The notes: generated from the letters alone by a model not told the origin. A DNA stretch of 64,000 bases from Candidatus Kaiserbacteria bacterium (GCA_016214605.1 JACROD010000012.1:57-64056); one strand, 5' to 3'; shown: positions 2,988-58,235, counted from the stretch's first letter. Numbers and translations: made by a program.

Positions 2988-3004
2988 TCTTGTATAATAA
3001 ACGT

Positions 3005-5935: not shown

Positions 5936-6220
5936 TCGGATCATCGCTGTTCACGGAGGTAGAATCTGAGCTGGTCTCATTGAGACGGTTGACTTTGAAT
6001 TAACGTGACGATGTCCCCAAGCGCCACAAAGTCGTGTTGCATATGGCAAGCGCTATCTGGACCTGCTGGTCCAGCGCTCGGTCTTGCCGCCGTCGCACCA
6101 CAAGGGCATTTCCATTTTCCTAAGAGGATTACCTCTAAGGAAAATTGGTCCAGCTGCGAAGACGGCAAAAAAGACGACAAAAAACATTCCCCCGCGTTTT
6201 GTCCGTGCTATACTTTTCTC

Positions 6221-7081
6221 ATGCAAACTCTCAAAGAAGCCATAGAAGCCGCGCATGATAGTCGGATCGCGATCGGCCACTTTAATGTATCGGATTCCAA
6301 CCAATTCAACGCCGTGGTCGCGGCGGCGGGAAGCCTCAATCTCCCCGTCATCATCGGCGTCTCCGAAGGAGAGCGTACATTCTTTGGTGTGCACAATATC
6401 GCGGTTTTGGTCGCCGCGGCTCGCGCCGATGGCAAACAGGTATACCTCAATGCCGACCACACCTATTCTATAGATGGTATCAAGGAAGCCGTCGACGCCG
6501 GATTCGACGCGGTCATTTTCGACGGCAGCCATCTCTCATTTGAAGACAATATCAAACAGACCCGCGAGGTCGTCGAGTATGCGCGCACAAAAGGCAAGGG
6601 CACTTTGGTGGAAGCCGAGGTCGGCCGCATTGGCACCTCGAGCAAGCTTCTCGATGTCCCGCCCGAAGACATGGACAAAGACCTGACGACCGCCGAAGAG
6701 GCTTCACAATTTGTCCGCGAGACTTCGGTAGATATGCTCGCTCCGGCGGTCGGCACCATGCATGGCAGGCTCAAAGGCGGTGGCGAGCCCAAGATCGACA
6801 TCGCCCGCATCGAGGTATTGCGCGAGGCCGCCGGCGTCCCGCTCGTGCTCCATGGGGGATCGGGGTCGTCAGATGCCGACATTATAGCAGCGGCCAAGGC
6901 GGGTTGCTCGATCATTCATATCAATACTGATATTCGTGTCGCATACCGCAAGGGGATAGAGGCAGCTCTGGCGGCAAATGCCGATGAAATAGCCCCCTAC
7001 AAATTCCTCGCAGAGGGGACAAAGGCTGTCCAAGACATGACTACCAAATACCTCCGTCTTTTTGCGGGAATACAAGAATAG
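6221..7081 (+). CDS. fba: Fructose/tagatose-bisphosphate aldolase, class II
   Basis: MQTLKEAIEAAHDSRIAIGHFNVSD...VIIGVSEGE...LHGGSG are class II aldolase motifs. The ORF-track start at 6005 is a spurious 5' extension. The ATG at 6221 gives about 287 aa. Confidence 0.85.
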   Translation: MQTLKEAIEAAHDSRIAIGHFNVSDSNQFNAVVAAAGSLNLPVIIGVSEGERTFFGVHNIAVLVAAARADGKQVYLNADHTYSIDGIKEAVDAGFDAVIFDGSHLSFEDNIKQTREVVEYARTKGKGTLVEAEVGRIGTSSKLLDVPPEDMDKDLTTAEEASQFVRETSVDMLAPAVGTMHGRLKGGGEPKIDIARIEVLREAAGVPLVLHGGSGSSDADIIAAAKAGCSIIHINTDIRVAYRKGIEAALAANADEIAPYKFLAEGTKAVQDMTTKYLRLFAGIQE

Positions 7082-7125
7082 AGCAGATTGTTGCATTTTT
7101 GCTCAAATCCCGTATACTTTCGCCC

Positions 7126-7752
7126 ATGTTAGCACTTGAAGTACAGGTACGTGATCCGAAGGAAACTCCGGACGAATTGCGCGCGCGAGGTATCGTGCCA
7201 GCTGTTATGTATGGCCACAATGAGCCCGCCCAGTCTATCTCGCTCAATGCCGGGGTCCTGGAGGGGGTCTGGCGCGATGCAGGCGAGACGACCGTGATCA
7301 CGCTTAAGGGCCTCAAGGACGATAAGGAGACCCTGATCCACGATGCCCAGGTGCATCCCGTTACAGGTAAGCTTATGCATGTGGATTTCTTGGTTCTCGA
7401 AAAGGGCAAGAAGATCGAGATCTCCGTCCCGCTCGAGTTCGTCGGTGAGGCTCCGGCTGAGAAGGCGGGCCACTCCCTCAACAAAGCCCTCCACGAGATC
7501 GAGATCGAGGTCGCTCCGGCTGAGCTCCCGCACAGCCTTGAGGTAGACATCTCATCTCTCACCGAGATCGGTGATCACCTCACTGCCGCACAGATCAAGC
7601 TCCCACCGAGCGCCACCCTCATCACCGACCCCGAAGAATTCGTCGTATCGGTCACCGGCCACGAAGAAGAGCCTGCTGAAGAGGCCAAGACCGAAGAGGC
7701 CGCACCGGCAGAAGACGAGGCCCCGGCCGCTGAGGCCGCGACTGCCGAATAA
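7126..7752 (+). CDS. rplY: Ribosomal protein bL25 (general stress protein Ctc form) with an acidic Ala/Glu-rich C-terminal tail
   Basis: ...RARGIVPAVMYGHNEP...VHPVTGKLMHVDFLVLEKGKKIEISVPLEFVGEAPA is the L25/Ctc beta-barrel plus C-terminal domain. The ORF-track start at 7099 is a TTG. The ATG at 7126 fits the L25 N-terminus. Confidence 0.85.
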   Translation: MLALEVQVRDPKETPDELRARGIVPAVMYGHNEPAQSISLNAGVLEGVWRDAGETTVITLKGLKDDKETLIHDAQVHPVTGKLMHVDFLVLEKGKKIEISVPLEFVGEAPAEKAGHSLNKALHEIEIEVAPAELPHSLEVDISSLTEIGDHLTAAQIKLPPSATLITDPEEFVVSVTGHEEEPAEEAKTEEAAPAEDEAPAAEAATAE

Positions 7753-7771
7753 TCATTGCGTAGTTAAAGAA

Positions 7772-7808
7772 GAGAACGCGTAGTCGAGAGGCTGCGCGTT
7801 CTCTTTTT
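7772..7808 (+). terminator. Rho-independent terminator after rplY
   Basis: GAGAACGCG ... CGCGTTCTC is a 9 bp stem, followed by TTTTTAT. Confidence 0.7.
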
Positions 7809-7889
7809 ATCCACATGCGATCAAGGAGTCATATCCACCAGCAAATATCATATATAATGAAGAGACATTACTGTAATTATATTTGTCAC

Positions 7890-10800
7890 ATGCCTATGCC
7901 ACGCCTAAGGTATCCTGCCGCCCTTTTATTTGGTGTCGCATTTGTATACCTCCCGCAGCTTGCTCTCGCTGCGACACTCAGTCCCGGTGCCGACTGTGTC
8001 ACAGGCCAGACCGCACCAAAATCAGAATATTCTATCAATGTTCCTTCACTTCCGTTGGGTGGGTATGCCGCCAATTCGCTCTCAACAGATTTCACCAATG
8101 CCGCCGGATCAGTCGGTGCCAATACGTATTGGACGGCCTCATCGACCAAGTATCTCGTTCCGACTAATCAGGCACAATTCGTGCTCGCTTCCAAATATTG
8201 CTCACGCGATGAGGAGGTCGAGACGTGGATCCGCGCTGGTCGCGTGTACCTGCGCCTTACGCCTGACGGAAGAGGTGTATTTTTTGATATCAATCCAAAC
8301 ACGACCAACGGAACGCTTATCGTCGGAATCGCGACAAGCACGACCGAAACGCAGTACTATCCCGGCTACAGTCGGTACCTCTACTCCAACGACAACATGG
8401 TTGGAACGATCCCCGGATATTCAAAGACAGCGACCGATGCGCAGCGATTTATCTTCGGTGTCGAAGGATTCGACATGTATGCGAAGTTCAACGGCGTCGA
8501 GTTTATGCGCATCAAAGATTTTCATCACATGGCACCGGGTCGCATGGCTATCAAGACGCCGGCGGGATATGGCGTCCGCTCCACGACGGTCCGTAACTTC
8601 TCCAATAAAACGTTCCTAAGCGATCTGGTAGCCGGCATCTACGATCCGCGCGACTTCGGCTTCCGCTCCATCCAAACGACCGGTTCCATCAGTGCCGGCA
8701 GCAACACACTCACGCTCGCGGGCCCGACATCCTTTACCGTCGGCGACTTTGTGATCGTGGAGATCGGCAAAGAGCCGGGCGCCGGCATGCGCGGTACCAA
8801 GGGAGTCGGCGGCACGTGGCCTGCGAAATCCTACCCGGACCTCACCACGATGCAGGCGGATACGTCGCAGATCGATGGATTGTATGCCTGGCGCGAAGAT
8901 ACCGGAGATGTATATAAATTCGCCACAGCCACATCTTCGTGGGGAAGTGCTTACTCATGGTACACGGCCGGGACGCCCGCATGGGGGCTTGATCGGGCCG
9001 CCAAAAATTATTATTCCGCCAAGGCAATCCCACGTGCACTACAGGCGCGTGTCACGGCTGTAGCCAACAACGGCGCCACACTTACCCTCGACAAATCCGC
9101 TACTGTCTCCGTCTCGGGTGCGAATGTCTACCTTGATGTCGCTCCGATACTCAATTTTCTCGTCGGTACGGACAACTGGTACAAGTTTGGCGGCGTCCCG
9201 GGAGACCTGACCGCACTTGTTCCTCTCAATATGCGAACAGTCCTCCCCGCTGGCTCGTATGCGGTCGGCGGTGCCATCATCACCGGCGGGCAGCGATCGA
9301 ATAATGTCCTATACGGACAAGGATCAAGTACTACGATGCTCTTTAGCCCCAAAGGCGTGCCCTCGGCTTCGATTTGGCTCAACGGCTCAAACAACATGGT
9401 GCGCGATCTACGTCTCGTCGGCAATACGGGCTTGAACGGATTCGGTATCGCCTGGCCCACCACGATCATTCCGTGGGGATATGGTCCATCGGGGCTTGAA
9501 GTGTCATATACAAGCCCTGGTGTCGTCACCGAAACAGTGATTCCGCAAGGGATGGGCTGGCCCTTCGGCATCTTGATGTACGGGAGTAATCTCATTGTGC
9601 AGGACGTCAAGGTAGACAATGTATGGCAGGACGCGGTTGGTGCCAGCTATTGCTATGGTTGCTGGGCGCATCGCGTTGAAAACACGCAGACCGATCCTTT
9701 GCAGAACTATATTCAGTGGCAATTCTTGTGGAGTGATGCGGTTGGTGGCGGGTGCGTCGATTGCATCGTGAAAAGCGACTGGCTTATTGCGGGGTTCTCA
9801 ATCGTCAAAGGCAACGGCGTGCAGTTCATCCGCCCCAAGGGCATCAATGCCACCTTCGAGGTGAATTCATCCGGCAATTTCCTCTATCAGGATCCCGAGA
9901 CGGTGATCCAGCCGATGCGTCAGTCTCCTTCGTTCTCGTCGAACGGGTACATCATGAATATCAATACCAACATGGACAATGCGCTTCCGGTCGAGCAGCG
10001 CGACAAACGCAACGCTGCGGGTGGCAAGATCATCAACCCACACTTCATCGTAGAGGGTCCGATCAATACCAACAATAATGGCCTCAATGCGATCGCTATA
10101 GGGAACTGGGCTCCCAATGTCACTGTCCAGGGCGGCTATATCGAAGGGCCGAATTGGAAGTCGCCGAGCACCATCAATACGCCGGTGGGGGTGATCTCGC
10201 AAGGTACGAGCACTATTGTCGACGGATTGCGCGTAGTAGGTACCGTCAATCCGGCCCTCTTCCCCAAAGGGAACATTATGCTCTTTAAAGATGGGGTTGC
10301 CCGGAATTGCATAGCGGACCTGATCATTCTCTTCGACAAAACAACAAAGAAAGAAAACTGCATGACAAATGCGGAGTACCTGGCGAGTAAAGCGCCCAAG
10401 ATCACCATCACCATACCATCCAATAGCAACGTATCGGGTGCCATTACTGTAGCGGCGTCAACGACCGGCGCCAATCTGCAAGGAGTGCAGTTTTGGCTCG
10501 ATGGTGCGAATCTTGGCTCCGAAGATACCATGGCGCCATACAGCGCCGGGTGGAATACCGCAAGTTCGACCAATGGTATCCATACGCTTACGGCAATCGC
10601 GCGCAATGCACTGGGACAGCAAGCGAGCAGCACCGTAAGCGTACATGTTGCCAATGCCTCTCCGGTAGCGGGCGTTGTGTGCGGGAGCACAACGATCGCG
10701 CCAGTCGCAGAATACGGCGTGCCCGTCTCGCTACTGCCGCTGGGCAGCTATGCGACCAGTTCGCTTTCGGCGTATTTTGAAAATCCTGCCGGAATCATCT

Positions 10801-11459
10801 TTGCGTCCAAGTACTGGGAATCCATTTTTACCAAATATATGAGAGGGAATGATTACCGATACCTCATCGCACGCTCGAAATACTGCTCGCAAGACATGGA
10901 GGTTGATACATGGTCGCGCAACGGCATCGTGTACCTGCGCCTGACCGACACGGGTGATGCGCTGTATTTCTATCACAACGGCGAGGTCGGCAGTGGCGGC
11001 TCCCTTGAAGTCGGCGTCGTTAAGGGTTACATCGACGGCATCGGGTTCCGATGGGCGCAGAATGGAACGTACACGGTACTCTACCGAAATTCAAACCTGG
11101 CAAGCACGACCCCGACAGGGTATGTCAAAAAGCTCACCGATGGACACCACTTCACCTTTGGCGTTCAAGGATCCGATGTATATGTGCGATTCAACGGTAT
11201 CGAATTTGCACGATTCAAGACAACGCACGTGGCGGCCGGTCGCGCCGCTATCCAAGCAAACAGTGGCTATGGTTTTCGTGATCTGACCATTCGCCACACG
11301 GGATCGGCACCTATTGCCTCGGCGATGCCTTCCGGCGGCGTGTCCGCGAGCCTCATTGCAAGCTCGGCTCCTGCATGGAACGCTCTTCAGGAGATTCAAA
11401 AAATAGAGGACATGCTTCGCATGATGTTGGACCTGGTCGATACTATCGGCAAAAGATAA
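7890..11459 (+). CDS. Large secreted protein with an internally duplicated lectin/beta-sandwich-like module flanking a probable right-handed beta-helix region and an Ig-like domain
   Basis: The signal peptide MPMPRLRYPAALLFGVAFVYLPQLALA begins at the ATG at 7890. The N-terminal block (SEYSINVPSLPLGGYAANSLSTDF...SKYCSRDEEVETWIRAGRVYLRLT...FIFGVEGFDMYAKFNGVEFMRIK) is repeated near the C-terminus (VAEYGVPVSLLPLGSYATSSLSAYF...SKYCSQDMEVDTWSRNGIVYLRLT...FTFGVQGSDVYVRFNGIEFARFK). The shared Ig-like module (VQFWLDGANLGSEDTMAPY...ARNALGQ) is also present. Confidence 0.6.
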   Translation: MPMPRLRYPAALLFGVAFVYLPQLALAATLSPGADCVTGQTAPKSEYSINVPSLPLGGYAANSLSTDFTNAAGSVGANTYWTASSTKYLVPTNQAQFVLASKYCSRDEEVETWIRAGRVYLRLTPDGRGVFFDINPNTTNGTLIVGIATSTTETQYYPGYSRYLYSNDNMVGTIPGYSKTATDAQRFIFGVEGFDMYAKFNGVEFMRIKDFHHMAPGRMAIKTPAGYGVRSTTVRNFSNKTFLSDLVAGIYDPRDFGFRSIQTTGSISAGSNTLTLAGPTSFTVGDFVIVEIGKEPGAGMRGTKGVGGTWPAKSYPDLTTMQADTSQIDGLYAWREDTGDVYKFATATSSWGSAYSWYTAGTPAWGLDRAAKNYYSAKAIPRALQARVTAVANNGATLTLDKSATVSVSGANVYLDVAPILNFLVGTDNWYKFGGVPGDLTALVPLNMRTVLPAGSYAVGGAIITGGQRSNNVLYGQGSSTTMLFSPKGVPSASIWLNGSNNMVRDLRLVGNTGLNGFGIAWPTTIIPWGYGPSGLEVSYTSPGVVTETVIPQGMGWPFGILMYGSNLIVQDVKVDNVWQDAVGASYCYGCWAHRVENTQTDPLQNYIQWQFLWSDAVGGGCVDCIVKSDWLIAGFSIVKGNGVQFIRPKGINATFEVNSSGNFLYQDPETVIQPMRQSPSFSSNGYIMNINTNMDNALPVEQRDKRNAAGGKIINPHFIVEGPINTNNNGLNAIAIGNWAPNVTVQGGYIEGPNWKSPSTINTPVGVISQGTSTIVDGLRVVGTVNPALFPKGNIMLFKDGVARNCIADLIILFDKTTKKENCMTNAEYLASKAPKITITIPSNSNVSGAITVAASTTGANLQGVQFWLDGANLGSEDTMAPYSAGWNTASSTNGIHTLTAIARNALGQQASSTVSVHVANASPVAGVVCGSTTIAPVAEYGVPVSLLPLGSYATSSLSAYFENPAGIIFASKYWESIFTKYMRGNDYRYLIARSKYCSQDMEVDTWSRNGIVYLRLTDTGDALYFYHNGEVGSGGSLEVGVVKGYIDGIGFRWAQNGTYTVLYRNSNLASTTPTGYVKKLTDGHHFTFGVQGSDVYVRFNGIEFARFKTTHVAAGRAAIQANSGYGFRDLTIRHTGSAPIASAMPSGGVSASLIASSAPAWNALQEIQKIEDMLRMMLDLVDTIGKR

Positions 11460-13317: not shown

Positions 13318-13393
13318 GATTTCCTCCGCGCGATTTCTCCGTGAAATATGACATTTTATATGCAGGAAGTCAAACCGTCTTTTTGAGGTCTAC

Positions 13394-13618
13394 TTAAAGT
13401 TGCTCGATCTCTTTGAGGTCGTGATCGGGGATATAGAGGAGTGCGAAGCCGACGAAGATTCCGAGTACGGTCGTGATGAATGGGTTGCCGCCGAGGAGGT
13501 AGATATCTACCGCATCGAGCAGGTGCCAGATGCCGCGCCAGATGAGGACGAGCCCCAAGACGATCATAAAGTTTTGCTTGATATAACGAAACATTTCCGG
13601 ACGGTCTTTTTTGGTCAT
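13394..13618 (-). CDS. Small membrane protein (two predicted transmembrane helices)
   Basis: The 74 aa hydrophobic ORF has an ATG start. Its function is unknown. Confidence 0.35.
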   Translation of the reverse strand: MTKKDRPEMFRYIKQNFMIVLGLVLIWRGIWHLLDAVDIYLLGGNPFITTVLGIFVGFALLYIPDHDLKEIEQL

Positions 13619-13731
13619 ATATCGGTATTATAATCCACTCCCTAGCATACCGCGCTTCATAGCGTCTTTTTTGGTCCGATGATATATAATAATGGTGTTG
13701 GAGTAGAAATTTTAATATAAACATATTTTAT

Positions 13732-16700
13732 ATGAAGAGGCATAATTTTTCGACTTTCCTTGTTATCGCAATGGTCTTTTTTGTAAGTCTGTCCTCTGTT
13801 CGCGTAGCCAACGCAGCAATCGGAGATATTGAGCTTGTATCTCCGCCAGCCGGTAATATCTACACATCTACTGATGGCCCAATCTATATGCGGAATTCAG
13901 CGCAAGCTGTCAGTAACGGGTGTTCCAATTCTCAAGTAGCCACTATTTATCGGACAGACACTGGAGATAATACACCCATTGAAGCAGTTAATCTCGTACC
14001 CGGTGGATGCACGGGTGACACTTTCAGTACAGCGAATGTCTATTCAGGCACTGACGTGCGATCAATACCGGGAACATACGATGTGCTGGATATGCAATGC
14101 CCAGAATCATTCACAGAAAGTATGTGTCTTGCAGCACAGGGAGCCACCGTCCAATTCTCGTTCACTGTTGCTACAGCAGCTCCGGTAATTTCTCCAAATC
14201 TTGTGAATGCAACGATTGACACTACTTATTCAAGGGCTATCGGAGTGACCGGAGGCCTTGCGCCATTCACCTGGAGTATTGCTTCCGGATCATTACCTGA
14301 CGGACTGTCTTTAAATACTTCAACGGGGGTCATTTCAGGTACTCCGACAGTGACAGGGACTTCCGATTTTACGGTTCAGGTGATAGACAGCAATGCGGCG
14401 GTTGACACGCATTCGTTCTCTCTTTTGGTTAATTCCACGCCAGTTATTACTAGCACCAGTCTTGTCGGAGGGCACGTTAATACGTTGTATTACCAGACTC
14501 TGCAGAAATCTGGCGGCACACTACCTGTTACATGGAGTGTTATTTCCGGGTCACTGCCACCTGGAATGCAGCTTACTGGGGGTGTAGTGGCGGGAATTCC
14601 AACTCAGGTTGGGACCTCAACCTTTACGGTCCAACTCACTGACGCCAATGGAGCTACAGCTACACAAGCACTCGTTCTGGTTATTGACTACGTACCCCCT
14701 GTCATCATCACCCCCACACTTCATCCTGGTCAAGTTGATATTGCTTACCATTCTATTTATGGCTCTGTTTACGACACGGTCCGTGTCTCGGGTGGTAGTT
14801 TGCCATTAATATGGAGTATTATCTCCGGTAGTTTTCCCGATGGACTATCACTCGACCCTTCTAATGGTTTGGTGTCAGGAACCCCGACTACCGCAGGAAC
14901 ATACCACTTTACTGTGCAAGTCACCGACAACGACGTGGCGTCAGATACCCAAGAAGTCACATTGGATATTGATCCGTCCACAAGTGGAGAAGTGGTTCTT
15001 GTCTCGCCGCCTACGGGTAACCTTTATACAAGCACTAACGGTCCGATCTATATGCGAAACTCGGGAAGGGCCGTTAATAGTGACTGTGCGACCTACGGAA
15101 GTCCCATTGCACTAGCAACCATCTATCGAACAGATACCGGAGACAACACTCCTTCTGAGGAGGTTAATCTTGGGTGTACTGGAGAAGTTTTCAGTACGGC
15201 TAATGTATATTGGGGTTCCGATGTGCGTTTAACACCTGGAGCATACGATGTATTGGATAGGCAATGTCCGGAGTTTGTCACAGAACAGGATTGTCTTTTT
15301 GGTTCTTATGCAGCCTTGGGAGCCACAGTCCAATTCTCATTCACGGTAACATCAACGGTCGTTTCGCCGCCGGCCATTACCACCACTTCGCTGAGTGAGG
15401 CCACGATAGGAGTTGGGTACAATCACTCGCTCCATGTTACAGACGGATCTGCTCCGTATGTTTGGACAATCGCCTCAGGAAGTCTGCCCGCAGGCCTCAG
15501 CCTCAATGGATCAAATGGTGAAATATCCGGAGTACCAAGCATTGCTGGAAATTATGATTTTACTGTTCAAGTTACCGATACAAATTCACAAACAGCAATC
15601 CAGGATTTAACTCTTGTCGTAAATCCGGCGCCAGAAATTATTACTGCTTCAATTCCTGACGCCACTATAACAGGCAATTACTCACAGACCCTAGAGGTTG
15701 CCGGTGGCACCACTCCTCTTACTTGGAGCTTACCTGCAGGCAGTCTACCTTCAGGGCTAACCTTGAGTAGCTCTGGCATCCTATCGGGTGTGCCAGGCGA
15801 GACTGGTTCTTTTAATTTTACCGTACAAGCTACTGACGCAAACTCGGCTTTTGCCACCCAGACATTATCCTTGATGGTAAACCAAGCCCCGGCTGTCACG
15901 ACTACGAGTCTAGCAGTAGGCACCATAAATGCGGCCTATTCCCAGGCACTTGAAGTGTCAGACGGCTCTTTTCCGTTTATTTGGTCCGTCACATCCGGCA
16001 TCCTACCTGACGGATTAAGTCTCAATAGTTATACTGGTGAAATATTCGGTACGCCGACGACTGGAGGGAATCAGCTACTTACAGTGCAAGTGGTTGATAA
16101 CAACGGCGTTTCTGATTCAAAGTCATTATCCATAGCGGTTAATCCATCCGTTACCATTACCACAATCTCCAATCCTACCGACGCGACGATAAATGCCGCT
16201 TATTCGCAAATACTCACAGCCACTGGCGGTACCGTACCGCTCACATGGGGTCTCCTGAGTGGTAGTCTGCCACCTGGTCTCACTTTGAGTGAGACTGGTG
16301 TCTTGTCTGGCATTCCAACGGCCACAGGAGTTTTTAACTTTACCGCCCATGTTACGGATGCCAACAACTCTTCAGCGAATCAGGTGTTGTCTATTGTAGT
16401 GAATTCTGCACCGATCATCACTACCAGCTTCGTACCAGACGCGACGGCTAATGCCGTATATTCGCAGTCTCTGCAGGCAACAGGAGGCACTGCGCCCCTT
16501 ACATGGAGCTTACTGAGCGGATCCTTGCCCGCAGGTCTGGCACTTAATTCTGAGGGCACTATCGTGGGTGTCCCAACGACTACGGGTACCTATACCTTCA
16601 CTGTTCAGGTAACTGATATTTATAACATATCAGCCAACCAATCACTCACGATCCAAGTCCATCCGGCTCTCCATATCACCACAACGAACCTCCCCAATGG

Positions 16701-16926
16701 AAAAGTAGATAAAAAGTACTCTCGCTCTGTCCATGCCGCCGGCGGTACTGCACCGTTTGTGTGGAGCATTATTTCAGGTACTTTGCCCACAGGATTATCG
16801 TTTGATTCTGGGACTGGTGTAATCTCCGGTATCCCCACTATTGCCGGAACCGTAAACTTCACCGTTAAGGTTCTCGACTCTAATAATGCCAGCTCGACAC
16901 AGTCATTGAGTATTCAGGTGAATTGA
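13732..16926 (+). CDS. Secreted giant surface protein composed of about ten tandem putative-Ig / cadherin-like (dystroglycan-type) domains
   Basis: The signal peptide is MKRHNFSTFLVIAMVFFVSLSSVRVANA. An approximately 85 aa unit '...T.SL..A.....Y...L....G..P..W....GSLP.GLSL....G.ISG.P...G...FTVQVTD.N' is repeated about 10 times. Two N-terminal paralogous approximately 130 aa modules are also repeated (ELVSPPAGNIYTSTDGPIYMRNS... / VVLVSPPTGNLYTSTNGPIYMRNS...). GC is lower than in the housekeeping genes. Confidence 0.75.
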   Translation: MKRHNFSTFLVIAMVFFVSLSSVRVANAAIGDIELVSPPAGNIYTSTDGPIYMRNSAQAVSNGCSNSQVATIYRTDTGDNTPIEAVNLVPGGCTGDTFSTANVYSGTDVRSIPGTYDVLDMQCPESFTESMCLAAQGATVQFSFTVATAAPVISPNLVNATIDTTYSRAIGVTGGLAPFTWSIASGSLPDGLSLNTSTGVISGTPTVTGTSDFTVQVIDSNAAVDTHSFSLLVNSTPVITSTSLVGGHVNTLYYQTLQKSGGTLPVTWSVISGSLPPGMQLTGGVVAGIPTQVGTSTFTVQLTDANGATATQALVLVIDYVPPVIITPTLHPGQVDIAYHSIYGSVYDTVRVSGGSLPLIWSIISGSFPDGLSLDPSNGLVSGTPTTAGTYHFTVQVTDNDVASDTQEVTLDIDPSTSGEVVLVSPPTGNLYTSTNGPIYMRNSGRAVNSDCATYGSPIALATIYRTDTGDNTPSEEVNLGCTGEVFSTANVYWGSDVRLTPGAYDVLDRQCPEFVTEQDCLFGSYAALGATVQFSFTVTSTVVSPPAITTTSLSEATIGVGYNHSLHVTDGSAPYVWTIASGSLPAGLSLNGSNGEISGVPSIAGNYDFTVQVTDTNSQTAIQDLTLVVNPAPEIITASIPDATITGNYSQTLEVAGGTTPLTWSLPAGSLPSGLTLSSSGILSGVPGETGSFNFTVQATDANSAFATQTLSLMVNQAPAVTTTSLAVGTINAAYSQALEVSDGSFPFIWSVTSGILPDGLSLNSYTGEIFGTPTTGGNQLLTVQVVDNNGVSDSKSLSIAVNPSVTITTISNPTDATINAAYSQILTATGGTVPLTWGLLSGSLPPGLTLSETGVLSGIPTATGVFNFTAHVTDANNSSANQVLSIVVNSAPIITTSFVPDATANAVYSQSLQATGGTAPLTWSLLSGSLPAGLALNSEGTIVGVPTTTGTYTFTVQVTDIYNISANQSLTIQVHPALHITTTNLPNGKVDKKYSRSVHAAGGTAPFVWSIISGTLPTGLSFDSGTGVISGIPTIAGTVNFTVKVLDSNNASSTQSLSIQVN

Positions 16927-16939
16927 TAACGACCGATAT

Positions 16940-18772
16940 ATGAATCCTGCAGGTTTTTTGGTTGATACTCTCAAGGTTGCCAATGTCAGATTCTTCAATA
17001 GAAAATATCTAATCGCTCTTGCGCTGTTTATACTATTCATATCCTTATATATTTACACCGCGCCTCGCGGGGTGTTTGATGGAGATAGTGGGGAAATGAC
17101 AACCGCGGTCCATACACTCGGTCTGGCTCACAGTACCGGTTTTCCTCTCTATGTACTCTCGGCAAAACTGTTCACATTTGTATTTCCGTTTGGTGAATTT
17201 GCCTTTCGTCTCAATATCTATTCTGCACTGCTCACTGCTCTTTCGGTCGCCCTGCTCTATGTACTGATTCTTGAGATGGAGTTGTCCACTGTGGCGGCTT
17301 TTTTGGCGTCATCAACTTTTGGTCTGGGATTTTCGATTTGGCGCAATGCCGGTCAGGCAAGAATATATCCGCTTGCGCTGCTGTTCGTGATCCTTCTCGC
17401 TTTTATCTTCGTTCGATGGCAGAAGGACAAACATATCCGCTATTTGTATTGGTATGTACTTGTGTGGGGTATTTCTTTTGGTACGCATCTTCTCGTGTTG
17501 ACCATGATCTGGCCCTTGCTCATCATGCTTTGGCAAAAGAGAGACTATCTAAGGACGCATGTAACGGTGCTCGGCAAAGCGGCATTGCTATTTTTCTTAC
17601 CTTTTGTGCAGTACATCTATATACCGATTGCGAATGCGAGGCACATGACCACCTCATGGGGAGATACTGGTGGGTTGATGGGATTCCTGTATTACATTAC
17701 CCAGAGACAGTACGTATATAAAATGATTGCACGAGATTGGACCGGCATAGCTCTTTTTTTCAAGCAGATGGGAGGTGTGATTTTCTCGGAGCTTGGGGCG
17801 ATTCTCTTTATGATTGGTATAGGGGGACTCATATATTTCTACAAGGAAAATAAACCGCTATGCTCTGCGCTAGTATTGGCAAGTCTCTCCAATATTGTCA
17901 TCATGTTCTCCTATGGCAATGAGGGGGATATCGGTTTCCTGTATCGCTATCTCTTTATCGTGCACCTGACAGTAGCAATCGGCATTGCCTATAGTGTCAC
18001 TGCCTTAGGGCGCGTTCGTAATGCCAAATGGTTTCTCGTGGCGTTTTTGATACTCCTTATATTTATTGAGCTTCGGACAAACTACGCTCGAAATAATCTG
18101 CGCGCAAACTTCATCGTATCCGATATTGCCCAGAACATTTTGGAGACGGTCGGACCAAACTCGATCCTTTTTACTACACTCGATGCGCCCCACGGGGCTA
18201 TCACGTATCTACAGAGCGAACGTTATCGGACCGATGTGATCGCCGTGATATCAGATCAGTTGGGATTTGATTGGTATGTGAAGGATCTCATATGGAAATA
18301 TCCCGATACATTCAGTACCGGATTGCTTACAATACAAGGAGACTATCTAAGAAAAAATAGTTTAAGAATAGAGGAAATAGTGCAGAATAATCTCGACAAG
18401 CGAGATATGTATGCAATGTTTGCCAACAACAAATTGCCCGACAACAGGACTCTTGCAGATGACTTTACTATCACCCCGATCGGTGTCGTGAATAAAATTA
18501 CAGCTAAAGGTGACGATAGTAAGATGATTTTGGCAAAAAATATCGATATCTGGAACAATTATCAACTGAGAGGTGTTTTCTCGGACACTTATGACAAAAC
18601 GATGGAATATCCTTTGAGGATCCTATACAGGGATGCACTCTATAATCTCGGGGTTTCTTACTTCAAGAATGGTTTTACGTCTCAAGCTGTAGACGCTTTG
18701 CAATACTCGCTCAAGATCAACTACACTCCCTATGCACAGAACGAGTTGGATTTTATAGAAAAACAGCGCTAA
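16940..18772 (+). CDS. GT-C fold glycosyltransferase of the DUF2723/TMEM260 (protein O-mannosyltransferase-like) family with C-terminal TPR-like repeats
   Basis: The N-terminal half is polytopic membrane (about 10 TM helices) and begins ...TAPRGVFDGDSGEMTTAVHTLGLAHSTGFPLY, an Asp-containing first-loop motif typical of GT-C enzymes. The C-terminal half is soluble with TPR-like sequence YNLGVSYFKNG...ALQYSLKINY. The gene is AT-rich. Confidence 0.65.
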   Translation: MNPAGFLVDTLKVANVRFFNRKYLIALALFILFISLYIYTAPRGVFDGDSGEMTTAVHTLGLAHSTGFPLYVLSAKLFTFVFPFGEFAFRLNIYSALLTALSVALLYVLILEMELSTVAAFLASSTFGLGFSIWRNAGQARIYPLALLFVILLAFIFVRWQKDKHIRYLYWYVLVWGISFGTHLLVLTMIWPLLIMLWQKRDYLRTHVTVLGKAALLFFLPFVQYIYIPIANARHMTTSWGDTGGLMGFLYYITQRQYVYKMIARDWTGIALFFKQMGGVIFSELGAILFMIGIGGLIYFYKENKPLCSALVLASLSNIVIMFSYGNEGDIGFLYRYLFIVHLTVAIGIAYSVTALGRVRNAKWFLVAFLILLIFIELRTNYARNNLRANFIVSDIAQNILETVGPNSILFTTLDAPHGAITYLQSERYRTDVIAVISDQLGFDWYVKDLIWKYPDTFSTGLLTIQGDYLRKNSLRIEEIVQNNLDKRDMYAMFANNKLPDNRTLADDFTITPIGVVNKITAKGDDSKMILAKNIDIWNNYQLRGVFSDTYDKTMEYPLRILYRDALYNLGVSYFKNGFTSQAVDALQYSLKINYTPYAQNELDFIEKQR

Positions 18773-18778
18773 TCGATT

Positions 18779-19489
18779 ATGCTCGACCTCTGTATACCGA
18801 CCTACAACGAAGCAGATATCATCGCAGAATCGATATGCACGATAGAGAAAACACTACAGAGTACATCTCTTGAATGGCGGATTATCCTTGCGGACAATGG
18901 TTCCACAGACGGTACGATCGACATTGTGGAAGCACTCCTGTTACCGCAAACGCATATCCTCGCTGTTCCTCAGCGGGGTAAGGGAGCGGCGATTGTCGCA
19001 GTGACTCAGATGTCAAACGCGGAAATATTCGGTTTTATCGACGCGGATCTCTCCGTCGATCCGCAAGAGATTGAGGTATTTGTCCGTCATATCGAACATG
19101 GTGATGCCGACATTGTTGTCGGTTCGCGACTGATCAATACGAGGCTTGTGCAAAGGAATTTTCTACGTACGTTCTCGTCGCGATTATTCAATATTCTGCG
19201 CCGTGTGATACTCGGTATTCGAGTCGCAGACAGTCAATGCGGATTTAAGATGATGAATGCGCGAGGTCGAAAGATACTTACGCAATGCACAGAAACGGGA
19301 TGGTTCATGGACATAGAATTTTTATATCGCGCCGAACTTACAGGTCTTGTTATACAAGAAATACCTGTGCACTGGGAAGAGCATCGCTTTGCAGGACACA
19401 AGAGTAAGCTCCGTATAGTATCTGATGGGTGGGAAGCGGTGCTTGCCATGACAAGAATACGTCGTTCAGCTAGAAAGTTCACGGTTTGA
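18779..19489 (+). CDS. GT2-family glycosyltransferase (polyprenyl-phosphate mannose/glucose synthase-like)
   Basis: LCIPTYNEADII...ILADNGSTDGT...FIDADLSVDP...VVGSR are GT-A DXD/Rossmann motifs. The start is 7 nt after the GT-C gene stop. Confidence 0.8.
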   Translation: MLDLCIPTYNEADIIAESICTIEKTLQSTSLEWRIILADNGSTDGTIDIVEALLLPQTHILAVPQRGKGAAIVAVTQMSNAEIFGFIDADLSVDPQEIEVFVRHIEHGDADIVVGSRLINTRLVQRNFLRTFSSRLFNILRRVILGIRVADSQCGFKMMNARGRKILTQCTETGWFMDIEFLYRAELTGLVIQEIPVHWEEHRFAGHKSKLRIVSDGWEAVLAMTRIRRSARKFTV

Positions 19490-19490
19490 T

Positions 19491-20192
19491 ATGGAAAAAG
19501 AATCCTTCGAGCTTTTGCGGAGTATAGAAAGGTCATGGTGGTATCGCGGTCGCGCTGGAGCTATTCGTGCCGTGCTTGGTCGTGTGGGGCAGAAGGGGAT
19601 GATGGTACTTGATTATGGGGCAGGTTTCGGCGGTATGTGTGCGGAACTCGCTCCCTACGGTCAGGTCTTTGCCTTTGAGACCGATCCACGAGCATACGCA
19701 TCTGCGCGGCAAAGAGGGTATTTGGAACTATACAATGATGTTGAGAGCGCGCTGGGGCAATCATATGATCTCATCGCTCTTTTTGATGTGCTTGAGCACC
19801 TTCCCGATGATCGTGCATCTCTCATACAAATGCGAGAATCTTTTTCCAAATCAGGCAAAATTATACTCACCGTACCAGCGATGCCATTTTTGTGGAGCGT
19901 ACACGACACATCGCACCATCACTTCAGACGCTATACGCATTCCTCTTTACGTAGGGTGCTTGAAGAAGCTGGATATACGGTCGAGTACATGAGTTATTGG
20001 AATATGTTACTTTTTGTCCCGGCGGCGTTGGTGCGGTTGTTTGGCAGTGCAGGCGACGGCTCGTTACGCCTGTCTCCCATAGTCGACGCCCTCCTTTACC
20101 GCATTATCAGGGTCGAAGTCTTCTTGATGAGGTTCATTCGACTCCCGATTGGTATCAGTTTGGTGGCGCTTGTTCATACGAAGAACATGTAG
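19491..20192 (+). CDS. Class I SAM-dependent methyltransferase
   Basis: VLDYGAGFGGM (motif I), ...YDLIALFDVLEHLPD (motif II/III) and a C-terminal hydrophobic segment are present. Its ATG is 2 nt after the GT2 stop, so the genes are probably translationally coupled. Confidence 0.75.
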   Translation: MEKESFELLRSIERSWWYRGRAGAIRAVLGRVGQKGMMVLDYGAGFGGMCAELAPYGQVFAFETDPRAYASARQRGYLELYNDVESALGQSYDLIALFDVLEHLPDDRASLIQMRESFSKSGKIILTVPAMPFLWSVHDTSHHHFRRYTHSSLRRVLEEAGYTVEYMSYWNMLLFVPAALVRLFGSAGDGSLRLSPIVDALLYRIIRVEVFLMRFIRLPIGISLVALVHTKNM

Positions 20193-21706: not shown

Positions 21707-24604
21707 ATGCGGCAGTACGATCACAAAAAGATAGAGAAAAGGTGGCAAAAAGAATGGGAAAAGAAAAAAGCCCATGTCGTCAAGGACAAGGTCGCCGGCA
21801 AGAAAAATGAGTATCTGCTCGTCGAATTCGCATATCCCTCGGGCAATCTCCATGTAGGACACTGGTATGCTTTTGCGGTCCCGGATATCTACGGGCGCTT
21901 CCGTCGCGCACAGGGGCGCAATGTCTTGTACCCGATGGGATTTGATGCTTTTGGTCTGCCTGCCGAAAATGCCGCGATCAAAAACAAGCTCAATCCGCGC
22001 ACGTGGACGTATGCCAATATCAAACACATGAAAGGTCAGCTCGCCTCGATGGGGGCGTCTTTCGATTGGAGTAGGGAAGTGATCACGTGCGATCCGGATT
22101 ATTATCGTTGGACACAGTGGCAGTTTCTCCAGTTTTACAAAAAAGGTCTCGCATACCAAAAAGAGACCGCCGCCAACTGGTGCCCCAACGACAAGACCGT
22201 GCTCGCCAACGAGCAAGTGGTCAATGGCCGCTGTGAGCGATGCGGCGCCGAAGTAGAACAGCGCCAGATGGTTCAGTGGAATCTCAAGATCACCGACTAC
22301 GCCGACCGCCTCATCGACGATCTCACCAAGCTCGATTGGCCGGAGCAGATCAAGGAGAGTCAGCGCAATTGGATCGGTCGGAGTGAGGGGGCCCAAATTG
22401 ATTTTTTCCTTAATTTCGAGAATCAAATATTTAATGATCGTATTGGACCCACCGGCAAGAAGGCTCATGTCACAGCGTTTACCACACGGCCCGATACACT
22501 CTATGGTGCCACGTATGTGGTGCTTGCACCGGAGCAGTCATGGCTCACGCGTGCTGTTTACGAAGATCAGATGCTTAAAAATAATGATGAGGTAAAAGCA
22601 TATATCGAAAAGACGAAGAAAAGAAGCGATCTTGAGCGCCAAGAGAATAAGGAAAAGAGCGGTATCAGACTCGAAGGTGTTAGTGCGATCAATCCCGCCA
22701 CCGGAGAGAAGATCCCGGTGTTTGTAGCGGATTATGTTCTCGGTAGCTATGGTACCGGGGTTGTCATGGCCGTGCCAGCGCACGACGAGCGCGATTTTGA
22801 ATTTGCCAAGAAGTTTGATCTGCCGATCAAGGCGGTGATTGAACCAATGTTCACTGCAAAAAACGGAGAAGATGCAGTTAAGGCAGAACTTCCATTAAAC
22901 AGGCGCGAAGCGGTTGTTTGTGTAGTTAAGCATTGGTCAGAAGATAAATATCTTTGTCTAAAGTGGAAAAAAGTAGCCTGGAGTGGCTTTGTCACCGGTG
23001 GCATTGACGGTAGTGAATCGAAAGAAGAAGCCGGTAAAAGAGAAATTCTTGAAGAAACTGGATACAAAAATGTCAGATTCATAAAAGAACTTGGTCAGGT
23101 TGTTAATGTGCAGTTTTACCACGTCCTAAAAAAAGAAAATCGCTGGGCACGATTCCAAGGATTACTCTTTGAATTAACTGATAGTGAGCAAGAACAAATA
23201 AGTGAAGAAGAGAAAGATATACATGATATTCACTGGCTTAATCGCGATGAAGTCGAAAAATTTCTTTCAGTTGGGGATATGAAGCTTATTTGGGATCGCG
23301 CAATGGGAAAAGAATCCGCATATACAGGTTCAGGCATCCTTGTAAGTTCTAGTCAATACGACGGACTTGCAAATCAAGAAGCCAAAAAATCGATCACCGA
23401 AAAGTTTGGCCGTGCCAAGAAGACCTACCGCCTGCGCGATTGGGGAGTATCGCGTCAGCGGTATTGGGGTGTGCCGATACCGATCATTCACTGTGATGAT
23501 TGTGGTGCGGTCCCGGTGCCCGACAAGGATTTGCCGGTCAAGCTTCCCGAGGTCAAAGACTATCTTCCCGCAGGAGATGGCAAATCGCCGCTCGCCAAGG
23601 CGACCAAATGGGTCAATGTAAAATGCCCCCAGTGCAAAGGCAAGGCGATGCGCGAGACGGATACCCTTGATACGTTTGTCGATTCGTCGTGGTATTTTCT
23701 GCGCTACACCGACCCTAAAAACAAGAAGCAATTCGCCAACAAGAAAAAGCAGGCGACCTGGATGCCGATCGATCTCTACTCGGGTGGTGCCGAGCACACC
23801 ACGATGCACTTGCTCTATAGTCGCTTTTGGCACAAGGCGCTCTATGATCTCAAGCTCGTCGGCGAGAAAGAGCCGTATACGCGCCGCATGAACCGCGGAC
23901 TCATCCTCGGTCCCGACGGCGCCAAGATGAGCAAATCAAAAGGCAATGTCATCGACCCGGATGCGGTGGTGGCCCAGCTGGGAGCTGATACGGTGCGCCT
24001 CTATCTCGCATTCATCGGTCCGTACAATGAAGCGGGTAGCTACCCATGGAATCCTGATTCGATTGTCGGCGTGCGCCGATTTCTCGAGCGCGTCTGGCGA
24101 CTAGGACAGTTAACAGTTGACAGTAAACAGTTGACAGCAGATGCGGAAGTCGAAAGATTGTTACATAAGACGATCAAGAAGGTGGGGGAGGATTGCGCGG
24201 AGATGAAATTCAACACCGCCATCTCGCAGATGATGATCTTCGTGAATACCGCTGAATCAAAAGGCATCACCCGCGCGCAGTATGCGACATTCGTGCGGCT
24301 CCTCGCGCCATTTGCACCACATATCACCGAAGAACTCTGGCATGAAATAGGTAATAAAAAGTCGGTCCATCTGGAGCCGTGGCCCAAGTACGACAAGAAG
24401 AAGCTCGTCTCCGACACGGTTACGATCATGATCCAGATCAACGGCAAGCTCAGGGGTGAGGTGCGGGTCGCCGCCGATGCCGACAAGGATACGGTCGAAT
24501 CGGCTGCCAAGCGCGCGGTCGCCGATCGTCTCACGGACCAGACCATTCAACGCACGATAGTTGTCCCTGGCCGTCTCGTGAATTTTGTCGTATTGACAAG
24601 GTAG
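21707..24604 (+). CDS. leuS: Leucyl-tRNA synthetase carrying an in-frame Nudix-hydrolase-like insertion
   Basis: HVGH (HIGH), CP1/editing-region landmarks (TTRPDTLYGATYVVLAPE, GTGVVMAVPAHDERDFEFA), RLRDWGVSRQRYWG, KMSKS, and anticodon/C-terminal domains are all collinear with bacterial LeuRS. An extra ~150-160 aa segment lies between ...LPIKAVIEP and GSGILVSSSQYDG... Confidence 0.95.
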   Translation: MRQYDHKKIEKRWQKEWEKKKAHVVKDKVAGKKNEYLLVEFAYPSGNLHVGHWYAFAVPDIYGRFRRAQGRNVLYPMGFDAFGLPAENAAIKNKLNPRTWTYANIKHMKGQLASMGASFDWSREVITCDPDYYRWTQWQFLQFYKKGLAYQKETAANWCPNDKTVLANEQVVNGRCERCGAEVEQRQMVQWNLKITDYADRLIDDLTKLDWPEQIKESQRNWIGRSEGAQIDFFLNFENQIFNDRIGPTGKKAHVTAFTTRPDTLYGATYVVLAPEQSWLTRAVYEDQMLKNNDEVKAYIEKTKKRSDLERQENKEKSGIRLEGVSAINPATGEKIPVFVADYVLGSYGTGVVMAVPAHDERDFEFAKKFDLPIKAVIEPMFTAKNGEDAVKAELPLNRREAVVCVVKHWSEDKYLCLKWKKVAWSGFVTGGIDGSESKEEAGKREILEETGYKNVRFIKELGQVVNVQFYHVLKKENRWARFQGLLFELTDSEQEQISEEEKDIHDIHWLNRDEVEKFLSVGDMKLIWDRAMGKESAYTGSGILVSSSQYDGLANQEAKKSITEKFGRAKKTYRLRDWGVSRQRYWGVPIPIIHCDDCGAVPVPDKDLPVKLPEVKDYLPAGDGKSPLAKATKWVNVKCPQCKGKAMRETDTLDTFVDSSWYFLRYTDPKNKKQFANKKKQATWMPIDLYSGGAEHTTMHLLYSRFWHKALYDLKLVGEKEPYTRRMNRGLILGPDGAKMSKSKGNVIDPDAVVAQLGADTVRLYLAFIGPYNEAGSYPWNPDSIVGVRRFLERVWRLGQLTVDSKQLTADAEVERLLHKTIKKVGEDCAEMKFNTAISQMMIFVNTAESKGITRAQYATFVRLLAPFAPHITEELWHEIGNKKSVHLEPWPKYDKKKLVSDTVTIMIQINGKLRGEVRVAADADKDTVESAAKRAVADRLTDQTIQRTIVVPGRLVNFVVLTR
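22847..23325 (+). other. Nudix hydrolase domain inserted in-frame into leuS; AT-rich relative to the rest of the gene
   Basis: The encoded segment contains GGIDGSESKEEAGKREILEETGY, a perfect Nudix box G-x5-E-x7-REUxEExGU. The DNA here (for example aaaaacggagaagatgcagttaaggcagaacttccattaaac) is far more AT-rich than flanking leuS sequence. The segment starts 1140 nt (380 codons) from the leuS ATG, so it is in frame. Confidence 0.7.
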
Positions 24605-38330: not shown

Positions 38331-38617
38331 TTATTTTGGATCGGGCTTTTCATTGGCTCGTCGGGCAGACTACCTTCGATCTGTACGCCGTTGGCTTTTT
38401 CGAATTCTTCGATCTGACGGAGGATCATCCGGCCGAGCCGTTTTGCGAATACGAGATTTGTGGCAAAGACATCCGAATGCTGGCCCGAACGAAATGCGAG
38501 ATAAAACGCGCCTTCTCGGATCTGGAGCGAGAACATCTCCGGATAGGTGCGGGCTCCGGTGTGGGTCGTCTCAAAAGGATTTTGGTCTTGATTGGGCATG
38601 GTCCAAGTATACCTCAA
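38327..38617 (-). CDS. Hypothetical small ORF (TTG start in ORF track; internal ATG at 38597-38599)
   Basis: It lies directly downstream of the 245 aa gene and overlaps its stop. The coding status is uncertain. Confidence 0.25.
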   Translation of the reverse strand: MRYTWTMPNQDQNPFETTHTGARTYPEMFSLQIREGAFYLAFRSGQHSDVFATNLVFAKRLGRMILRQIEEFEKANGVQIEGSLPDEPMKSPIQNK

Positions 38618-39351
38618 GATCCCCGGTTCAGGAGAATCGCTTTTGCAGGCCTTAGTAATTCTCCTACTGCAGAGTTGTATTCTCTTACAGAAGCGTTTCG
38701 ATTCACACTAGGCGAATCTTTCCATGTATTATAAAGTGTTCGAATCCCCGGGAATGTTCCGTTGCCAGGATAGAGACCTTGAACTATAAAATATACTGCG
38801 AATTGCTCCACTATCACCACGAATATTGGAATAATAGATTCCATAGCTTTTTCATGAGTCGCTTTTTGTTCGATAACCCTGAGAGCGAATTCCTCCATAA
38901 GATTTCCAAGAGTTGTTATATCCTGTCGAAGTTCAAGGCTATTTGTAGCGAGATATATTCTTGCCTGTTCCCTCGCAACATCGGTGTGAGTTCGTAAAAA
39001 AGTGGCTCGATCAAAGCTCTCCATTCTGGTGGAGAGGAATGTATAAGAGCCATTGGTGCCATGTGTTGCAACGATTGCACTTTGAATTTTCGAATGGAGT
39101 GGAATGATGTCATCGCGAGTGATATCTAATAATGCGCTGACGGCATCTATGCGATCTTTCCTCTTTTGATAAACATATTGATACACGGCAACAAAAGCTA
39201 ATGCGGCCAAAACTACTTGAGAGGCATATGACAAGTCTTCTAGGAGCGGTTCAAGATGATAGTAGACGGTCATCATCAGTGCAATGAAGGCCCCGATGCC
39301 AAAACCTACGAGAGTAAACACCCATTCCCTGCTTTTTATTAAAGTTTGCAT
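38614..39351 (-). CDS. AT-rich hypothetical membrane protein (two N-terminal TM helices plus a soluble domain)
   Basis: A 245 aa ORF with an ATG start at 39349-39351. GC is well below that of its neighbours (murG/gltX and others). Confidence 0.5.
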   Translation of the reverse strand: MQTLIKSREWVFTLVGFGIGAFIALMMTVYYHLEPLLEDLSYASQVVLAALAFVAVYQYVYQKRKDRIDAVSALLDITRDDIIPLHSKIQSAIVATHGTNGSYTFLSTRMESFDRATFLRTHTDVAREQARIYLATNSLELRQDITTLGNLMEEFALRVIEQKATHEKAMESIIPIFVVIVEQFAVYFIVQGLYPGNGTFPGIRTLYNTWKDSPSVNRNASVREYNSAVGELLRPAKAILLNRGS

Positions 39352-58158: not shown

Positions 58159-58235
58159 AAATGGTATTATGGTAAATCATTTTACGACTATTGTCAATGA
58201 TTGCGATAAGGGCGAAATTGTGCAACGATTGAGCC

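Follow-up and report, generated by a model that had tools for sequence, protein, structure and literature searches.

We describe here a run of four plus-strand open reading frames (ORFs) on a contig of Candidatus Kaiserbacteria, a lineage of the candidate phyla radiation (CPR/Patescibacteria); the window referred to throughout is the 64,000-nucleotide (nt) stretch of this contig that was analyzed. The run begins with a gene for a 1064-amino-acid (aa) protein built from tandem immunoglobulin (Ig)-like He_PIG repeats (13732-16926). It continues with a glycosyltransferase of the GT-C class related to human TMEM260 (16940-18772, 610 aa), a family 2 glycosyltransferase (GT2; 18779-19489, 236 aa), and an S-adenosylmethionine (SAM)-dependent methyltransferase (MT; 19491-20192, 233 aa). 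The intergenic gaps are, in order, 13, 6, and 1 nt, and the whole run occupies 6.5 kb. In our judgment the case is evenly balanced that these genes equip a CPR bacterium with a TMEM260-type system for the lipid-linked O-glycosylation of proteins, with the adjacent Ig-repeat protein as its candidate substrate. A preliminary description of this DNA had proposed the core of this idea, namely, glycosylation of surface proteins by a lipid-linked GT-C pathway with a Ppm-like GT2 and a methyltransferase, and both the homology to TMEM260 and the conserved He_PIG gene neighborhood presented below strengthen it.

The GT-C is very probably a true homolog of TMEM260 and a member of its family, judging from several independent sequence comparisons. 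It matches PF11028 at 83.1 bits against a cutoff of 24.2, an assignment to this family and not to an unrelated membrane family, and both PF11028 and the outer-domain family PF28495 are precomputed for the identical NCBI protein. A profile built from the window protein and 18 relatives matched the cryo-electron microscopy chain of human TMEM260 (9rql_A) with E=2.5e-62, covering profile positions 12-451 and human residues 30-486, a span that takes in the transmembrane (TM) core and the outer domain. In a pairwise comparison, the bacterial and human proteins are 25% identical over 441 residues (E=5e-35). The additional Pfam signals were weak, consisting of a tetratricopeptide repeat (TPR) match (E=0.004) and a PMT_2 match of 19.6 bits (E=0.0011) against a cutoff of 26.1; together with the lack of any PMT or MIR match in Pfam, the latter gives no support for membership in PMT/GT39. 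The closest GT-C relative is only 41% identical, and the best matches all come from CPR bacteria. The NCBI gene model for the GT-C is shorter (558 aa), with a start about 52 codons later (window 16940-17102). We prefer the ATG at 16940, since the NCBI start removes the first TM helix and an invariant GDSGE motif and since 16940 fits the lengths of the homologs.

The residues essential for the human enzyme are largely retained. The 2026 structure paper on human TMEM260 assigned donor binding to D52, H67, R264, Y267, and R355 and the role of catalytic base to D441 in the luminal Rossmann-like domain, and it reported that D52A, H67, and D441A mutants are inactive. In both alignments, D52, H67, and D441 correspond to D49, H64, and D415 of the window protein, each of which is invariant in 19 family members. 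R355, in TMH10 of the human enzyme, corresponds to R336, likewise invariant in the 19, and Y267, in the donor loop, corresponds to Y258. At the position of R264, also in the donor loop, the window protein has Q255, which is itself invariant and is followed by R at 256 (R or K in the family).

The overall layout of the protein is also that of the human enzyme, whose outer domain and TPR helices bind the acceptor peptide. About 11 TM helices occupy residues 1 to ~385; their first outer loop holds H64 and the GDSGE motif (D49/E52). The C-terminal part comprises an alpha/beta "Rossmann-like" outer domain (~390-545) that carries D415, followed by three TPR helices (557-609). The TPR region is weak in Pfam, clear by profile, and shorter than in the human protein. 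An AlphaFold2 model (pLDDT 82.5, pTM 0.83) has the same ~11 TM helices to residue ~385, strands at 409-522, and helices at 557-609. A Foldseek search with this model, against a PDB set older than 9rql, returned PglB, STT3, ArnT, ALG9/12, DPY19, and Pmt4, which indicates a GT-C fold, and also AftA and Emb. The DUF2723/TMEM260-type GT-C with a TPR-like C terminus that had been anticipated at this locus is thus borne out by PF11028, the match to 9rql_A, and the catalytic residues.

The protein encoded immediately upstream matches Pfam He_PIG in 9 stretches (E=1.7e-110). It opens with a Sec-type signal peptide (aa 1-28), has no other hydrophobic segment and no C-terminal anchor, and is without a sortase signal. 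Behind the signal peptide lie an orphan domain (~29-150), repeats 1-3 (~150-415), a second copy of the orphan domain (~417-545), and repeats 4-9 (~546-1064); in the repeat alignment there are accordingly nine He_PIG (PF05345) repeats, in two blocks of 3 and 6. The preliminary description had this protein as secreted and Ig-like with about ten tandem repeats, which is right in all but the count, and had raised the prospect of Ser/Thr-rich linkers. None was found between the He_PIG repeats, which abut; Ser and Thr together make up 26% of the entire protein. The orphan domain, about 120 aa with four Cys residues, precedes each repeat block in copies that are 67% identical (13816-14181 and 14980-15366). 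Among 1.84e9 representative proteins it has a single other occurrence, in a soil metagenome protein (P0276, 54% identity), and a predicted model of the orphan domain with the first repeat had a pLDDT of 46.9, too low for use. No DNA-level tandem repeats were seen within the repeat gene. This is the sole He_PIG protein in the window, and a homolog search with the whole repeat protein returned mostly repeat-rich proteins of Acidobacteriota and Myxococcota that are not orthologs.

To place the pair in context, we assembled 165 loci with GT-C relatives, drawing on collections of genomes and metagenomes as well as on look-ups by protein identity, and we sought He_PIG neighbors in them with a hidden Markov model built from the window's repeats as well as with Pfam. 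He_PIG proteins were found only beside strong orthologs of the GT-C (~37-41% identity, ~600 aa), always at an offset of +1 or -1. Linked loci outside the window were L005/L006/L087, L008/L098 (Yanofskybacteria), L009/L091/L092 (Saccharibacteria, in divergent orientation), L088, and L097, and Pfam confirmed He_PIG in the linked loci tested. All six GT-C-linked He_PIG proteins (from the window and the five other CPR loci) begin with a signal peptide, and the He_PIG domain is the only part that they have in common. Counted over distinct loci, He_PIG occurs in 6 of 25 immediate neighbors but in none of the 120 other genes of those loci (Fisher p=1.5e-5); among distant DUF2723 loci it occurs in 0 of 1703 genes. 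The order of the two genes differs among loci, with the He_PIG gene upstream, downstream, or divergent, and the linked GT-Cs are scattered across their clade. Both observations indicate that the linkage of GT-C and He_PIG has survived rearrangement. Genes for Ig-repeat surface proteins are syntenic with the GT-C in relatives, as would be expected from the preliminary description.

That description had also named the giant secreted proteins farther upstream (1-11459) as plausible substrates. Nothing ties them to the system, whose recurring partner is the He_PIG protein. The three giants (978, 981, and 1214 aa, encoded on the plus strand at 51-11459) carry Big_7, fn3, CHB_HEX_C, and DUF4838 domains; their genes are interrupted by those for class II fructose-bisphosphate aldolase and ribosomal protein L25, and the GC content at third codon positions (GC3) of the giants is typical of the genome.

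Distant DUF2723 genes have recurring neighbors of their own. A gene for a YmdB phosphoesterase lies directly upstream of the DUF2723 gene in 14 loci (L013-L026, L103-L112, L041/L049/L066/L071/L149 set), and in the same set tricorn-type proteases (~1080-1150 aa) occur in 8 loci and phosphoglucomutase/phosphomannomutase (PGM/PMM) in 5. In L012, a more distant TMEM260-like GT-C (4883-6777, 835 aa) is encoded beside a GT2 and an RGP gene (reversibly glycosylated polypeptide/UDP-arabinose-mutase-like), a gene set that may correspond to the three-component pentofuranose systems reported in PMC11127046.

The GT2 encoded downstream of the GT-C matches Glycos_transf_2 (PF00535, 1.4e-28) and carries the motifs ADNGSTDGT, DAD (88-90), and QCGFK. 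It contains no hydrophobic or TM segment, so that the C-terminal TM helices of the GtrB, ArnC, and Pyrococcus dolichyl-phosphate-mannose synthase (DPMS) type are missing, and it resembles the TM-less catalytic type of DPM1/Ppm1. Its best NCBIfam matches are AglJ, ArnC, PgfS, PpgS, and a dolichyl-phosphate hexose transferase, every one far below the family cutoff; the match to AglJ has E=3.2e-20 and 72.7 bits against a cutoff of 325, and no equivalog cutoff was reached. In the PDB its best matches are ArnC (1.8e-13) and the Pyrococcus DPMS (1.1e-9). The GT2 is probably a donor synthase of the polyprenyl-phosphate-sugar type, an assignment in which the class is clear and the sugar is not. The earlier proposal of such a synthase with DXD motifs agrees with PF00535, the DAD motif, and the ArnC and DPMS matches. 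MraY, MurG, and FtsW are encoded in the same window, and their presence shows that the organism uses polyprenyl-phosphate carriers.

The last gene of the run encodes a SAM methyltransferase, as had been proposed, with a match to Methyltransf_23 (PF13489, 4.8e-15) of 56.1 bits that is well above the cutoff of 27; its relatives in the PDB are uncharacterized. Orthologs are numerous across the CPR, at 45-56% identity. In all four of the MT contexts examined, a GT2 of 230-260 aa is encoded directly upstream of the MT, and in two of them this GT2 is a clear ortholog of the window's (61% and 53.5% identity). PMT-type GT-C genes adjoin the GT2-MT pair in three of the four. The two activities also occur as fusions, in a 508-aa GT2-MT protein located two genes from a TMEM260-like GT-C (L010, 14082-15608) and in a 431-aa GT2-MT protein (L167, 3229-4524), and an MT is fused to a GtrA/DPMS-type 4-TM domain (GtrA_DPMS_TM) in P0076 (L168, 6001-7188). 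Together, the GT2-MT and MT-GtrA fusions suggest a membrane-tethered complex for donor synthesis. A C-terminal hydrophobic stretch of the MT was considered as a membrane anchor and rejected, since all orthologs share this stretch as the conserved "PLPFG.SLVA.ARKK" terminus of the MT fold. Every GT2 match in the GT-C loci lies no more than three genes from the GT-C. The four genes thus constitute two conserved modules, GT-C with He_PIG and GT2 with MT, that are contiguous only here. Their spacing is as tight as in the single cassette of the preliminary description; the separate conservation of the two modules is a departure from it.

The run also stands out in base composition. GC3 is 0.424 for the He_PIG gene, 0.489 for the GT-C gene, 0.460 for the GT2 gene, and 0.517 for the MT gene, compared with a window median of 0.62 and a range of 0.57-0.74 for the remaining genes of at least 300 aa, and the low-GC3 island stops ahead of a DUF5671 gene (GC3 0.69). 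The island is genuine, as the preliminary description had it, and modest in the size of the effect. The same GC3 deficit of the GT-C/He_PIG pair relative to its neighbors, amounting to 0.12-0.15, recurs in three other CPR genomes (0.351/0.351 versus 0.466 in L098, 0.322/0.331 versus 0.452 in L088, and 0.343/0.393 versus 0.478 in L092). The recurrence of low GC3 makes it a trait of these two genes, not a sign of recent transfer, and supports treating the pair as a unit. In addition, ychF adjoins the pair in Kaiserbacteria and Yanofskybacteria alike. The horizontal acquisition that had been proposed from the AT richness of the GT-C gene finds no support in view of the recurring deficit and the synteny with ychF across two lineages. 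Just ahead of the island, between it and an LRV-repeat gene, a 74-aa protein with 2 TM helices is encoded on the minus strand (13394-13618); it has no Pfam match and is not a GtrA. An ORF that overlaps this gene (13356-13724, minus strand) was discarded as spurious, its translation being Arg-rich.

From the homology, conserved residues, gene linkage, and fusions observed here, we infer an acceptor, its modified sites, a sugar, a methylation target, and an order of steps as follows. On the cytoplasmic face, the soluble GT2 would use a nucleotide sugar to load polyprenyl (undecaprenyl) phosphate with a sugar of the hexose type. The MT would act in the same donor pathway, where it most likely methylates the sugar on its lipid carrier prior to flipping, much as ArnD modifies the product of ArnC; that the MT methylates a sugar at all is a tentative suggestion. 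A flippase would carry the donor outward. The GT-C, with an outer-face pocket formed by D49, H64, R336, and the putative base D415, would then transfer the sugar to Ser/Thr hydroxyls in the nine He_PIG repeats of its Sec-exported neighbor while that chain is still extended, in the way that human TMEM260 acts on IPT domains while the chain is extended (2026 structure paper). For the He_PIG protein as the acceptor, we put the chances at even or slightly better. A broader claim would be that TMEM260-type enzymes have O-glycosylated Ig-fold repeats, in a domain-specific manner, since ancient times and do so in the CPR. The ~600-aa bacterial orthologs of this clade would recognize the He_PIG repeats of co-encoded, secreted, adhesin-like proteins at the Sec exit and attach to them a methylated hexose from the GT2-MT module; taken as a whole, this is speculative and rather doubtful.

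The closest precedent is human TMEM260 itself, an endoplasmic reticulum protein O-mannosyltransferase for the IPT domains of plexins, MET, RON, and fibrocystin that is specific for these Ig-like domains. The two enzymes share a homologous TM GT-C core with an outer Rossmann-like domain, the same essential residues, and C-terminal TPR helices, and the candidate acceptor in the window is likewise a protein of tandem Ig-like domains (E-set type). They differ in that the enzyme described here is bacterial and would use a polyprenyl carrier, whereas the human carrier is dolichyl; in that the TPR region has 3 helices instead of 5 and the protein 610 aa instead of 707; and in that the candidate acceptor domain is He_PIG and not IPT/TIG, with donor genes, including one for an MT, clustered alongside.

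Among bacterial systems, the nearest in logic are actinobacterial Pmt/Ppm1, taken up below, and the Pgf cluster of Streptococcus mutans, which encodes a GT2 (PgfS), two GT-Cs (PgfM1 and PgfM2), PgfE, and the adhesins Cnm/CnaB/CbpA. As proposed here, the GT2 in the Pgf and streptococcal GtrB/PgtC2 systems makes an undecaprenyl-phosphate sugar, and outside the membrane the GT-C carries out the O-glycosylation of surface proteins that have been exported. The Pgf cluster shares the inclusion of substrate adhesin genes, and PgfS is among the NCBIfam matches of the window's GT2. Unlike the system in the window, Pgf employs YfhO-type GT-Cs that act on Ser/Thr-rich disordered regions, its GT2s are membrane anchored, and its cluster lacks a methyltransferase. 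Of the components of three-component extracytoplasmic glycosylation systems (a GT2, a flippase, and a GT-C), the GT2 and the GT-C are encoded side by side at this locus.

Actinobacterial Pmt (GT39) and Ppm1 combine a GT-C with a polyprenyl-phosphate-mannose synthase of family GT2 and act on disordered, Ser/Thr-rich regions of Sec-exported acceptors; their genes are usually not clustered with the substrate gene, and no MT is known to be involved. The logic of a GT-C served by a polyprenyl-phosphate-sugar GT2 is the same, whereas the GT-C family is different, the PMT_2 match of the window's GT-C being under the cutoff. The donor logic is common to the three-component systems ArnC/ArnD/ArnT and GtrA/GtrB/GtrC. 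ArnC is the nearest PDB relative of the window's GT2, ArnD provides a precedent for modifying a lipid-linked monosaccharide before it is flipped, and a TM domain of the GtrA type occurs as a fusion partner in relatives of the window's MT. The acceptors of the Arn and Gtr systems, in contrast, are lipid A or O-antigen, the C-terminal TM helices of ArnC and GtrB are missing from the window's GT2, and no GtrA gene was seen among the ORFs scanned in the window. In Haloferax, AglP is a SAM methyltransferase of the N-glycan, and the pathway joins a lipid-linked-sugar GT2 with sugar methylation. AglJ of this pathway is the best NCBIfam match of the window's GT2, at a score far below the cutoff; no orthology is implied, and the Haloferax pathway differs in being archaeal N-glycosylation with the AglB oligosaccharyltransferase.

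Several observations weigh against a protein O-glycosylation system at this locus, and some of them would fit a GT-C that, like ArnT, GtrC, YfhO, and Emb/Aft, modifies something other than a protein on the outer face; this could be a lipid or lipoglycan, or else a glycopolymer of the cell wall. The He_PIG protein would then not be the substrate but would function alongside at the surface, perhaps as a scaffold or as an adhesin that binds glycans. Several ortholog loci (L001, L004, L088, and L090) carry 2-3 tandem GT-C genes and one GT2, an arrangement typical of stepwise glycan assembly, and about half of the ortholog loci have no adjacent He_PIG gene and have extra PMT-type GT-Cs and a GT2 instead, which would also fit glycan building. 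The fold search, too, returns ArnT, AftA, and Emb beside protein glycosyltransferases. No acceptor sequon can be derived from the He_PIG repeats: no Ser/Thr column of the alignment separates 19 GT-C-associated repeats from 1759 unassociated ones, and the sequon of human TMEM260 (P..P..GP..GG..T) is absent from them. Two top-scoring He_PIG giants in other phyla are without a GT-C neighbor. Distant family members adjoin PGM/PMM and other non-Ig genes; the genes beside 88 distant DUF2723 members encode YmdB, tricorn protease, PGM/PMM, and PMT_2, with no Ig-like family among them, which makes the Ig link specific to the present clade. On the other side, the sole characterized member of the family, human TMEM260, is a protein O-mannosyltransferase whose base, D441, is invariant here as D415; the outer domain and TPR helices with which the human enzyme binds peptide are kept; and the linkage is specifically to secreted He_PIG proteins and has survived rearrangement. 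We consider a non-protein acceptor unlikely, though a serious contender.

Other objections concern the gene cluster more than the acceptor. If the four genes shared no pathway, the GT-C/He_PIG order would have been inherited in one CPR lineage and the GT2-MT pair would be here by chance. The full four-gene arrangement is indeed seen in the window only, an MT occurs together with a TMEM260-like GT-C only in the window and L010, and the GT2-MT pairs of relatives stand with PMT-type GT-Cs, not with the TMEM260 type. The presence of ychF near the GT-C/He_PIG pair in two classes points to some inherited synteny, and the six linked loci could in part reflect inherited gene order. A further gap in the proposed pathway is that scanning of window ORFs turned up no gene for a GtrA-like or other flippase; in relatives, GtrA is present as a gene or in fusions. 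Yet the 13-, 6-, and 1-nt gaps on one strand argue for co-transcription, the GT-Cs keep their He_PIG neighbor in three arrangements while being only 37-41% identical, and depressed GC3 is common to all four genes. Moreover, no GT-C works without a polyprenyl-phosphate sugar donor, and where GT-C loci have GT2 genes, these are always within three genes of the GT-C. Chance assembly of unrelated genes is thus very unlikely in our estimate. Recent horizontal acquisition of the island, to which its GC3 (0.42-0.52 against a median of 0.62), the distance to the nearest GT-C (just 41% identity), and the almost unique orphan N-terminal domain might point, is also quite unlikely: the GC3 deficit is found in L098, L088, and L092 as well, the neighbor ychF is shared by Kaiserbacteria and Yanofskybacteria, the best matches all lie within the CPR, and no integrase, tRNA, or repeat boundaries were seen in a search that was not exhaustive.

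TMEM260 was recognized as an O-mannosyltransferase in 2023, and its structure followed in 2026. Of bacteria, the TMEM260 papers mention only "distant homologs in bacteria," and in the literature searched, DUF2723 is mentioned by the TMEM260 study alone. New here are a TMEM260-type GT-C in this bacterial role, its recurrent pairing with tandem Ig-like repeat proteins, and a TM-less GT2 with a dedicated methyltransferase partner. If the broader claim made above holds, the locus would represent a prokaryotic prototype of metazoan plexin/MET O-mannosylation, with a lipid-linked methyl-sugar donor not described before. The gene cluster suggests that glycosylation of Ig-like domains may be much older than animals. 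With a bacterial ortholog, a probable substrate, and donor genes in a 6.5-kb operon, it offers a compact, reconstitutable system for studying how this class of GT-C recognizes Ig domains, and with it one could test directly whether Ig domains were already O-glycosylated before eukaryotes arose. It is likewise a lead on the construction and diversification of surface proteins in episymbiotic CPR bacteria. The GT2-MT module, in which the two enzymes occur fused to each other and MT also to GtrA, points to an undescribed modification step on lipid-linked monosaccharide donors.

Elsewhere in the window, the gene for leucyl-tRNA synthetase (21707-24604, plus strand, 965 aa) encodes a NUDIX hydrolase domain (PF00293, E=2.6e-11) at aa 402-517, an unusual insertion located between the editing domain and the second catalytic half. 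Two long minus-strand ORFs have no family match: one of 245 aa (38614-39351), whose GC3 of 0.366 is the lowest of the window's long ORFs, and one of 519 aa (53855-55414) with unusual GC content at first and second codon positions (0.46/0.51). At 57493-58922, a sortase gene on the minus strand is divergent from a plus-strand gene for a 228-aa CARDB-domain protein.

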